A DNA stretch of 63,148 nucleotides, filler included, from Stramenopiles sp. TOSAG23-3 (taxonomy: Eukaryota), in the NCBI GenBank assembly GCA_900128585.1. It is 46 parts of 46 records of this genome, joined end to end, with 100 filler letters (N's around TTAATTAATTAA, not from the genome) between each part and the next. Parts side by side here need not be neighbours in the genome. Positions count along the whole stretch, not along the records: positions 30,416 to 31,689 come from LT646120.1; 45 more parts are not named here. One strand, written 5' to 3'. Of the stretch, positions 30,416 through 31,184 are shown piece after piece; the first letter of the stretch is position 1; each line of letters begins with the position of its first letter. Both the position numbers and the translations under genes were made by a program. The notes beneath the pieces were generated by a model, which had not been told where the DNA came from, searched no databases, and saw only the letters and a list, made by a program, of their open reading frames with translations.

Positions 30416-31184
30416 CATCACCATGGCGGAGCTCCGTGAGGAGTTGCTGAAGGTGAACAAACTCGAGCTCAGTAAAACTCAAATCGTGGACGTGACACCA
30501 CTGGCAGCGCTCGTTAATCTCACGAAGCTCCACCTCACTGGAAACAAAATCGTGGACGTGACACCACTGGCAACGCTCGTTAATCTCACGGAGCTCCACC
30601 TCACTGGTAATCAAATCGTGGACGTCTCACCACTGGCAGGGCTCGTTAATCTCACACGGCTCAACCTTGGTGACTACCGAGGTGGAAATAAAATCGTGGA
30701 CGTGACGCCACTGGCAACGCTCGTTAATCTCACGCATCTCGAGCTCCATGGAAATAAAATCGTGGACGTGGCACCACTGGCAACGCTCGTTAATCTCACG
30801 GTGCTCAACCTTCATGGAAATAAAATAGTGGACGTGAGACCACTGGCAACGTTCGTCCATCTCACGGAGCTCTACCTTGGTGAAAATCAAATCGTGGACG
30901 TGGCACCACTGGCAGGGCTCGTCCATCTCACGAATCTCCACCTCTATTCAAATCGAATCGTGGACGTGACGCCACTGGCAACGCTCGGTAATCTCACGTG
31001 GCTCGAGCTCGAAAATAATCAAATTGTCGACATAACACCACTGGCAGGGCTCGTGAATCTCACGCGGCTCGTGCTCATTAATAATCAAATCGTGGACACG
31101 AGCCCCCTTCGTTCACTACCAAGAAGCACAAAGATTCATGGTGTGGGACATGTTGAGCGTGGCGGTTGCTGTACCATTGTTTAA
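30416..31184 (+). CDS. Internalin-like 22-aa LRR protein with C-terminal CaaX (GGCCTIV), probably 5' partial
   Basis: About 10 repeats of LxNLTxLxLxxNxIVDVxPLAx; 66-bp DNA period. Confidence 0.92.

Follow-up and report, generated by a model that had tools for sequence, protein, structure and literature searches.

A leucine-rich repeat gene family with a fixed repeat scaffold, variable face codons and a CaaX-type C-terminus in Stramenopiles sp. TOSAG23-3

Two repeat arrays and the genes that carry them

The stretch of DNA analysed here (the window; 63,148 bases from the assembly GCA_900128585.1 of Stramenopiles sp. TOSAG23-3) contains the 3′ parts of two related leucine-rich repeat (LRR) genes, whose open reading frames (ORFs) are called ORF A and ORF B below. 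The window is not continuous genome, as it consists of 46 contigs of 1262-1289 bp each, arranged in descending size order and separated by 45 identical 100-base spacers (N44-TTAATTAATTAA-N44) at 1290-1389, 2678-2777 and onwards to 61787-61886. ORF A and ORF B lie on separate contigs (30416-31689 and 38651-39921), each starting at the first base of its contig. The contig of ORF A is preceded by an artificial, non-biological spacer without strand (30316-30415) that joins it to an unrelated contig, and that of ORF B by a second such spacer between contigs (38551-38650). The distance, order and neighbourhood of the two ORFs in the window are therefore meaningless, and any reading that rests on gene neighbourhood inside the window is void. 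Individual pieces have GC contents between 0.32 and 0.66, and the window may accordingly hold sequence from more than one organism.

Tandem Repeats Finder identifies arrays with a period of 66 bp at 30481-31064 (8.7 copies), 38651-38895 and 38916-39201, with sub-periods of 132 and 198 bp. The scaffold core of the repeat, CCACTGGCANNGCTCGT, is matched 19 times in the window when up to three mismatches are allowed, compared with 1.07 matches expected and a maximum of three in the shuffled window; the 66-bp repeats are real and far above chance. Seventeen of the matches fall inside the arrays of the two ORFs (nine and eight), and the remaining two, at 6725 and 51025, carry three mismatches each. 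The original prediction had described about 18 units with a shared scaffold in two paralogues. That observation is confirmed overall, with the correction that the two copies sit on separate contigs and are both truncated at the 5′ end.

ORF A (30417-31184, plus strand, stop codon at 31182-31184) is cut at its 5′ end by the start of the contig, and its frame is open from base 30417 onwards. An ATG at 30423 is internal: the relatives P0013 and P0064, described below, read ...DLDITMAELREELLKVNKLELSKTQ at this point and extend about 70 residues upstream, and the opening residues of ORF A, ITMAELREELLKVNKLELSKTQ, are found exactly in both. Translation gives nine full LRR units (array A, 30483-31088), eight of which are 66 bp long and one, from 30615, 78 bp long (26 aa) through an inserted YRGG. 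These are followed by a conserved C-terminal cap unit, IVDTSPLRSLPRSTKIHGVGHVERGG (31089-31166), and by CCTIV (31167-31181), which is a CTIV box with an adjacent upstream Cys. ORF B (38653-39282, plus strand, stop codon at 39280-39282) is cut within an LRR unit by the start of its contig. Its array (38653-39192) comprises the cut unit and seven full units, one of 26 aa from 38848 that again holds a four-residue loop insertion, and one of 23 aa from 39124 with a single extra residue. The cap unit of ORF B, IVDTCPLRSLPKSTKITGVSVCCRS, includes a CC pair (39193-39267) and is followed by CTIV (39268-39279). The C-termini thus read ...GGCCTIV* in ORF A and ...CCRSCTIV* in ORF B, both preceded by the same cap, IVDT.PLRSLP.STKI.GV. 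A CaaX box consists of a Cys, two mostly aliphatic residues and one further residue at the extreme C-terminus, and CTIV fits this rule in both ORFs.

The LRR identity of the repeats is borne out by Pfam LRR_4 matches to both ORF A (E 1.4e-46) and ORF B (E 5.9e-38). The variable positions are x3, x5, x7 and x8 of LxxLxLxx, hereafter the face codons, and every variable word listed by the original prediction was recovered: KLHLTG, RLNLGD, HLELHG, ELYLGE, NLHLYS, WLELEN and RLVLIN in ORF A, and KLWLSD, ELHLDR, FLILEG and TLWISW in ORF B. The loop insertions reported alongside them were found on translation as the one four-residue insertion in each ORF.

Minus-strand and +1-frame ORFs also run through the arrays (30627-30926 on the minus strand of the window, and up to 293 aa in the metagenome loci L001-L010 described below) and were rejected as genes. 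These frames yield repeats such as CQWCHVDDLI and SSTWHHWQR, and they stay open because stop-free 66-bp units are repeated in phase. In the RNA run X7, pieces of the coding region with 0-2 differences occur at 30416-30506, 30717-30786 and 30974-31122, which is a weak hint that ORF A is transcribed.

Family architecture, fold and C-terminal end

When ORF A was used as the query of a general protein search, 8,000 candidates were scored and 783 hits obtained, most of them unrelated LRR proteins. A whole-library phmmer search with the same query (70,970 hits) was uninformative on the family, the 150 listed being proteins of 733-5758 aa with repeat-only matches. Among the 19 best-matching proteins that were fetched, 11 carry the cap and/or a shared N-terminal domain (P0003, P0012, P0013, P0021, P0022, P0034, P0044, P0063, P0064, P0087 and P0090), and the other eight are generic LRR proteins. 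The family proteins possess one or two copies of an N-module (...NDTLIEALFIFHxEGEEACVGMFPQYG..IIKKLVE.CKQSKTGLFALDNNDAEMVGKELLKMNKL), followed by 2-9 LRRs, the cap IVDTxPLRSLPKxTKIxGV and an end of the form (G)GCCTIV or CCRSC(T/A)IV. A profile of the N-domain, built on a four-sequence alignment, located ten family loci (L001-L010) in JGI metagenome contigs. The genes at these loci are complete and uninterrupted, with stops upstream and 4-12 LRRs; nine starts and ends were mapped, and same-strand tandem copies of family genes lie on L004 and L007. Recovery of the missing N-terminal domain, proposed as a check on the original prediction, was thus achieved from both the relatives' proteins and the metagenome loci, and the full-length relatives are uninterrupted ORFs, in keeping with the claim that the genes are intron-free.

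One of the 11 proteins, P0021 (321 aa, encoded on an NCBI contig of 9373 bp), has an unusual form in which an N-domain, LRRs and cap lead directly into a second N-domain and LRRs, with no stop between the two modules and no CaaX. Either two modules have fused in tandem and in frame, or the gene call has read through from one gene into the next.

A Pfam scan of four full-length relatives returned only LRR families above the cut-offs. The best score of the N-domain in a search of the Protein Atlas was 0.79, under the lead threshold, and a limited open-access text search found no published description of the family. Judged by its sequences, this appears to be a small, undescribed, lineage-specific and intronless LRR multigene family with a new helical N-domain.

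The fold was modelled with AlphaFold for P0013, using 17 family rows, and the model has a mean predicted local distance difference test (pLDDT) score of 81.5. Residues 1-18 and the final six residues are disordered, and helices at 21-34, 36-40, 47-64 and 75-82 precede the LRR solenoid, which scores at least 89 in each 10-residue block of residues 101-200. A curved solenoid with a concave parallel β-sheet is predicted, to which each unit contributes one short strand on x3-L4-x5 (87-89, 109-111, 131-133, 153-155 and 175-177; for example K87-L88-E89 and D109-L110-R111). In the geometry of LRR solenoids, x3 and x5 project from the concave sheet, and x7 and x8 come next at the sheet edge. Because the modelled strands fall on x3-L4-x5, the variable codons would lie on or beside the concave sheet, as originally proposed. 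Internalin A is the best solved match to the model in Foldseek (E 1.2e-11, TMq 0.54, root-mean-square deviation 2.0, 120-122 columns). By phmmer against the PDB, the closest entries are the Chlorobium tepidum Roco LRR 5il7 (E 1.6e-94) and internalin A (1e-66), and PP1 regulatory subunit 7 (SDS22) is also matched (E about 1e-12).

The CaaX-type end with an extra Cys that was first noticed in the two window fragments is conserved throughout the relatives, as CCTIV, CTIV or CCTIL. An end in CTIV, CAIV or CTIL is present in eight fetched proteins (P0003, P0012, P0013, P0034, P0044, P0064, P0087 and P0090) and in seven distinct locus genes (L002, L004a, L005, L006, L007b, L008 and L009). Two genes, L001 (P0022; 132-1268) and L007a (P0063; L007 3-443), have no CaaX and possess at this place a hydrophobic 19-mer, located 3-4 residues from the C-terminus, with a mean Kyte-Doolittle value of 3.29 in L001 and 2.02 in L007a. 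On sequence grounds these ends are predicted tail-anchor transmembrane helices. L002 and L007a are the same gene as far as the cap and diverge only beyond it, and the family thereby shows a natural swap of CaaX and tail anchor on one protein. The N-termini of the family proteins are not hydrophobic, and no signal peptide was found in them. Because CaaX and tail-anchor ends interchange, the function of the tail would be to fix the C-terminus to the cytosolic side of a membrane, and the family members are probably cytosolic LRR proteins tethered to the membrane by a lipid tail.

For CCTIV, prenylation and a second lipid are predicted from the motif rule and from the precedent of Ykt6. Ykt6 ends in CCAIM; farnesyl is attached to its CaaX Cys, and GGTase-3 adds a geranylgeranyl group to the Cys before it, for which palmitoylation had been proposed earlier (accessible text of PMC12001115). 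The adjacent cysteines of CCTIV resemble this CCaaX end. However, Ykt6 is reported in the same text to be the sole GGTase-3 substrate, and acceptance of CCTIV proteins is putative; in ORF B, moreover, the CC pair sits three residues upstream of the CaaX Cys and is not adjacent to it. The only other long ORF of the window with a CCaaX-like end encodes a PH-domain protein of 204 aa (36193-36807, minus strand, Pfam PH E 7e-12) that ends in CCAII and is unrelated to the LRR family.

Variable face codons and turnover of the repeat units

The 13 window units of 22 aa differ from one another, on average, at a fraction of 0.136 of the nucleotides in their 18 non-face codons, compared with 0.621 in the four face codons. 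The wider analysis covered these 13 units and 61 units from non-redundant loci, only exact 22-residue units (85 of 92) being kept. The face positions x3, x5, x7 and x8 have entropies of 2.4-3.45 bits, and no other position exceeds 1.67 bits. By the pairwise method of Nei and Gojobori, the nonsynonymous rate (dN) of the face in the window is 1.78, and the synonymous rate (dS) of the scaffold is 0.185; the corresponding values for the loci are 1.22 and 0.188. The face codons' own pairwise dN/dS is 2.7-3.9 (3.9 in the window and 3.1 in the loci). Parsimony counts on a FastTree tree of 70 distinct units assign 227.6 nonsynonymous and 18.4 synonymous changes to the four face codons, a ratio of 3.18, with each of the four sites in excess (P 0.024, 0.0018, 0.0027 and 0.0024); the 15 scaffold codons receive 71 and 60, a ratio of 0.47.

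A similar distribution is seen among recent differences. When near-identical genes of separate assemblies are compared, 15 replacements lie in LRR units, and 11 of them fall on face positions, which make up about 20% of the residues (P 1.2e-5). This count omits the pair of ORF B and P0013, in which only the 3′ ends correspond, and the pair L002/P0063, which duplicates L002/L007a; with all allele pairs retained, 17 of 26 replacements are on the face. The six DNA differences in the LRR arrays that were compared comprise five replacements and one synonymous change (three and one in L007b/L010, two in L002/L007a). The original prediction had named surplus nonsynonymous change at its x positions as one of its tests, and such a surplus was found in pairwise comparisons, on the tree and among near-identical alleles. 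Of the three outcomes that were to count against the prediction, none clearly occurred. By these approximate tests, the family appears to have a few hypervariable codons under diversifying selection on a predicted binding surface, a pattern known from recognition and immune-type proteins.

An ordinary adaptor or scaffold LRR family of the SDS22, Rsu1 or SHOC2 type could also produce a variable face if the x positions were merely unconstrained, and if short-tract gene conversion kept the 44-bp scaffold alike and halted at mismatched x codons. The scaffold is indeed under purifying selection (0.47) and homogenised within lineages, SDS22 is among the PDB matches, no signalling domain was matched in the family, and the face codons are near saturation, where dN/dS is unreliable. 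Lack of constraint is, however, at odds with a face dN/dS of 2.7-3.9 in pairs and 3.18 on the tree, with all four sites individually in excess. It is equally at odds with the recent, unsaturated differences, in which the face takes most of the LRR replacements and the array DNA has five replacements to one synonymous change. We consider an adaptor family of this kind unlikely, although it deserves to be taken seriously.

The scaffold itself bears the marks of a shared history within lineages. Synonymous codons are fixed by position (CTG for L17; CTC for L20, L1, L4 and L6; CCA for P16; AAT for N9), and some of them are not the same in the window and the loci. At V12 the window units mostly have GTG (10 of 12) and the locus units GTC (44 of 49); at V21 the prevailing codons are GTT in the window (nine of 12) and again GTC in the loci (44 of 45). 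For 11 of the 13 window units the nearest scaffold neighbour is another window unit, even though window units make up only 12 of the 70 other units. Lineage-specific scaffold codons and nearest neighbours within the window suggest concerted evolution or lineage-specific expansion. Within a gene, mean unit identity is 0.60-0.76 at the amino acid level and 0.74-0.84 at the nucleotide level, with single pairs at 0.86-1.00. Differences in unit number are also seen, as in two pairs of near-identical genes, P0012 with L006 and P0003 with L009, the members are exactly 44 residues (two units) apart, with the proviso that these are short-read contigs in which collapse is possible. P0013 is a mosaic, its 5′ module being as in ORF A and its last two units and cap as in ORF B.

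The original prediction of cassette shuffling holds to the extent of such two-unit indels and mosaic ends between assemblies. In the programmed, somatic sense it is not supported, given complete germline genes and arrays that recur. Lamprey variable lymphocyte receptors (VLRs) are extracellular LRR arcs that are assembled somatically and owe their variable concave face to cassettes, and arrays rearranged in each cell from unit cassettes would be the equivalent here. Alike units with identical scaffold flanks would favour template switching, array lengths vary, and a contig of the run X1 joins 30536 to 31083 and so skips 546 bases, from unit 1 to the last unit. A comparable idea has been raised for the LRR-ROCO genes of Ectocarpus (accessible text of PMC3341825). 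Nevertheless, complete open genes of the germline lie on multi-gene genomic contigs, and arrays found in one metagenome assembly are found again in others, with two differences in 801 nucleotides, one in 540 and five in 1023. No incomplete gene with flanking cassettes, the arrangement expected of a VLR-like system, was seen apart from a short fragment at L007 347-577, and the X1 joint is most simply explained by a short paralogue such as P0064. Because the arrays recur nearly unchanged and complete genes are present, a germline repertoire fits; these comparisons concern contigs, in which rare rearrangements or variants are invisible. Somatic change of the arrays and programmed cassette assembly of the family are not supported, and we regard a VLR-like process as barely credible.

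It may also be asked whether short-read assemblers have stitched units of many loci into false arrays. The window contigs end at or beside repeats, and the Logan contigs of the run X1 break at nearly every unit, with scaffold bins several times deeper than the flanks. In Podospora, repeat domains could not be rebuilt from Illumina assemblies (PMC11761791, as far as its accessible text goes). The pattern of a fixed scaffold and a variable face is, however, a property of each unit, whatever the order of the units. Different assemblies yielded identical arrays independently, and in every array the reading frame remains open as far as the shared cap. That the pattern is largely an artefact of assembly is highly improbable.

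Origin and likely role of the family

The original prediction left open whether the genes belong to a host or a virus. A giant virus or an intracellular bacterium might encode them as effectors that hijack host prenylation: LRR families are often expanded in bacterial and viral genomes, general LRR matches in the databases are mostly bacterial, and prenylation of Legionella CaaX effectors by the host is reported (PMC13081727 and PMC7542358). Three scans of the IMG/VR viral contigs, with the N-domain profile, ORF A and the scaffold DNA pattern, nevertheless returned no match, and neither did a scan of 185,579 prokaryote species, with one genome each, for the N-domain profile. The neighbours on related contigs, which encode an AP2 domain (28.7 bits, below the Pfam cut-off of 33.3) and a 3CxxC zinc-ribbon domain, are not virus-like. 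Other contigs of the window, which may come from several organisms, encode WASH CCDC53, CCDC93, the PH-domain protein and a copia-type reverse transcriptase. The eukaryote-type genes on other window contigs and the AP2 and 3CxxC neighbours point to a eukaryote as the most likely source of the family. Viral origin is not supported, and we hold a viral or bacterial source to be very unlikely.

Several other features of the window were recorded in passing. An F1-ATPase alpha-like ORF at 29488-30315 (plus strand) has an apparent N-terminal extension and is about 35-42% identical to ordinary alpha subunits, with about 40% to named bacterial ones; its relatives are a 575-aa protein at 99% identity and another protein at 47%, and it may be a divergent paralogue. 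The Protein Atlas matches of a 3-beta-HSD-like ORF are all bacterial clusters. The CCDC53-like ORF (40022-41290, minus strand) is of unusual form: it matches the C-terminal part of this WASH-complex subunit four times, in repeats of about 54 residues (162 bp), and contains a tandem repeat at 40234-40541. At 6940-7975 (plus strand), 'ELWKTDGTEAGT...NPG' units are encoded by a tandem repeat of 144 bp (7.2 copies, 90% matches), and after them comes a TNFR-type cysteine-rich region (29.3 bits against a Pfam cut-off of 29.4). The copia-type polyprotein fragment at 41393-42661 (minus strand) matches SH3_retrovirus (E 2e-11) and RVT_2 (25.0 bits, below 31.6) and contains a 27/54-bp internal repeat. 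Three contigs (4166-5452, 8326-9611 and 59162-60424) have first and last 25 bases that are exact mutual reverse complements, and look like hairpin or palindrome artefacts of assembly or amplification. Rfam and tRNA scans of the whole window gave no match.

With regard to known systems, the repeats are closest in form to those of internalins and of the C. tepidum Roco protein, with which they have in common a length of 22 residues, the consensus LxxLxLxxNxIxDIxPLxxLxNLxx, the solenoid fold and, in the model, a helical N-terminal cap before the repeats. Listeria internalins possess a signal peptide, an Ig-like inter-repeat domain and a cell-wall anchor, whereas the family is without all three and its proteins end 25-32 residues beyond the last LRR. 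Roco carries a Roc-COR GTPase after its LRRs, which the family lacks (by the Pfam scan of the four full-length relatives, and with the stop right after the cap). The family's own features are the CCaaX or tail-anchor end and the N-domain, together with a eukaryotic source and a putative cytosolic location. Transcription activator-like (TAL) effectors, which are bacterial and bind DNA, combine near-identical repeats with two hypervariable specificity residues; neither their mechanism nor that of the VLRs is supported for the family. The Pfam model of BspA-type repeats is LRR_5, and it is not among the Pfam matches to ORFs A and B at E ≤0.01.

BspA-like LRR proteins of Entamoeba histolytica, which were compared with the family by Pfam only, have no signal peptide or transmembrane domain and carry a CAAX end, and one of them is reported from the cell surface. 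Their repeats are of the TpLRR/BspA type, and no pattern of fixed scaffold and variable face is described in the accessible text (PMC2843621). Other parallels lie in the mode of evolution. In fungal NOD-like receptors (NLRs) with highly conserved repeats (HET-E/HET-D WD40, ANK and TPR repeats), the repeats are homogenised by concerted evolution and polymorphic in number, and diversifying selection acts on a few hypervariable codons, four in HET-E/D, at the surface that binds (PMC11761791, PMC4986451, both in part). Four hypervariable face codons are likewise seen in the family; its lineage-specific scaffold codons and two-unit differences, found in arrays from short-read contigs, may reflect a similar homogenisation and polymorphism in number. 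The family differs in its LRR repeats, a repeat type absent from fungal NLRs in the consulted part of PMC4986451, in the lack of a NACHT, NB-ARC or effector domain among its Pfam matches, and in its membrane anchoring by a predicted lipid or tail anchor. In Ectocarpus, LRR units of the LRR-ROCO genes are shuffled among paralogues, with diversifying selection on the LRRs and rapid gene birth and death (accessible text of PMC3341825). According to the same text each LRR there is its own exon and a ROCO GTPase is present, whereas the family is intronless and has no GTPase. The evolutionary mode would match that of Ectocarpus LRR-ROCOs and of the fungal NLRs with highly conserved repeats, and the architecture in which it occurs here is new.

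We lean towards the view that the family is a germline tandem repertoire of membrane-tethered LRR binders under diversifying selection. ORFs A and B would be the 3′ fragments of two members of an intronless germline multigene family of a marine eukaryote. The full protein would consist of a short disordered N-terminus without a signal peptide, one or two helical domains of about 60 residues, 4-12 internalin/Roco-type LRRs of 22 residues, a capping unit and the CCaaX end. The CaaX Cys would be prenylated and the neighbouring Cys or cysteines would take a second lipid (palmitoyl or geranylgeranyl), and this double lipidation would keep the LRR arc at a membrane, on its cytosolic side; a tail-anchor helix would do the work of the lipid tail in two relatives. 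The concave β-sheet would bind a protein ligand through the exposed x3, x5, x7 and x8 of every repeat, and replacement substitutions at these four codons would be retained in the germline by diversifying selection. In addition, the near-identical 66-bp units would recombine by unequal crossing-over or gene conversion, frequently 132 bp at a time and both within and between tandem paralogues, and this would homogenise the scaffold, alter the number of units and make mosaic genes. The role would most likely be the recognition of fast-changing partners at the membrane, such as pathogen or virus proteins, or self/non-self or mating cues.

Several observations weigh against this view, in which lipidation, placement at the cytosolic side of a membrane, the binding of ligands and a role in recognition or immunity are all steps that we infer. 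The selection tests treat repeat units as taxa, use a poorly resolved tree and ignore recombination; the face codons are near saturation (pN 0.60-0.68), where dN/dS is unreliable; and because homogenisation lowers the dS of the scaffold, the ratio to that dS overstates selection. The sources of the arrays are without exception short-read contigs, which break at repeats, so that indels and mosaics may be partly products of assembly, and arrays of this kind misassemble from Illumina data in the Podospora study (accessible text of PMC11761791). The unit identity of 0.60-0.76 is below the fungal criterion for highly conserved repeats, which is at least 85% identity over at least 100 residues (PMC4986451, in part). 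The N-module folded alone has only a moderate pLDDT of 65.8, its fold search gave a best E of 2.7 with none ≤0.001, and it matched no Pfam family. No signalling or effector domain was recognised by Pfam in the four full-length relatives, and the members appear to be few, as the N-module profile finds at least seven proteins of at least 211 aa among 5.8 billion clusters.

The structural and evolutionary description is well supported, and the function it suggests is membrane-tethered recognition of variable ligands, possibly immune-like, a role to which the mode of evolution points. In a more specific form, which we hold to be rather doubtful, the family would be the germline repertoire, in an uncultured marine protist, of lipid-anchored, NOD-less LRR sensors on the cytosolic side of membranes for innate non-self recognition (for example antiviral or antiparasite) or allorecognition, with the N-domain as a new signalling module. 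Selection and recombination between repeat units would together diversify the ligand-binding faces, and such a repertoire would have arisen separately from the NLRs of plants and animals, the highly-conserved-repeat NLRs of fungi and the VLRs of lampreys. The N-terminal helical module is a new domain whether or not the role is immune. Little is known of how marine protists recognise viruses, parasites and each other, and a family that combines a fixed LRR scaffold, four fast-evolving contact residues per repeat and a membrane anchor would make a tractable, compact candidate for a role of this kind. It would also add an independent case of a conserved repeat with hypervariable sites, which has so far been documented mainly in fungal NLRs.

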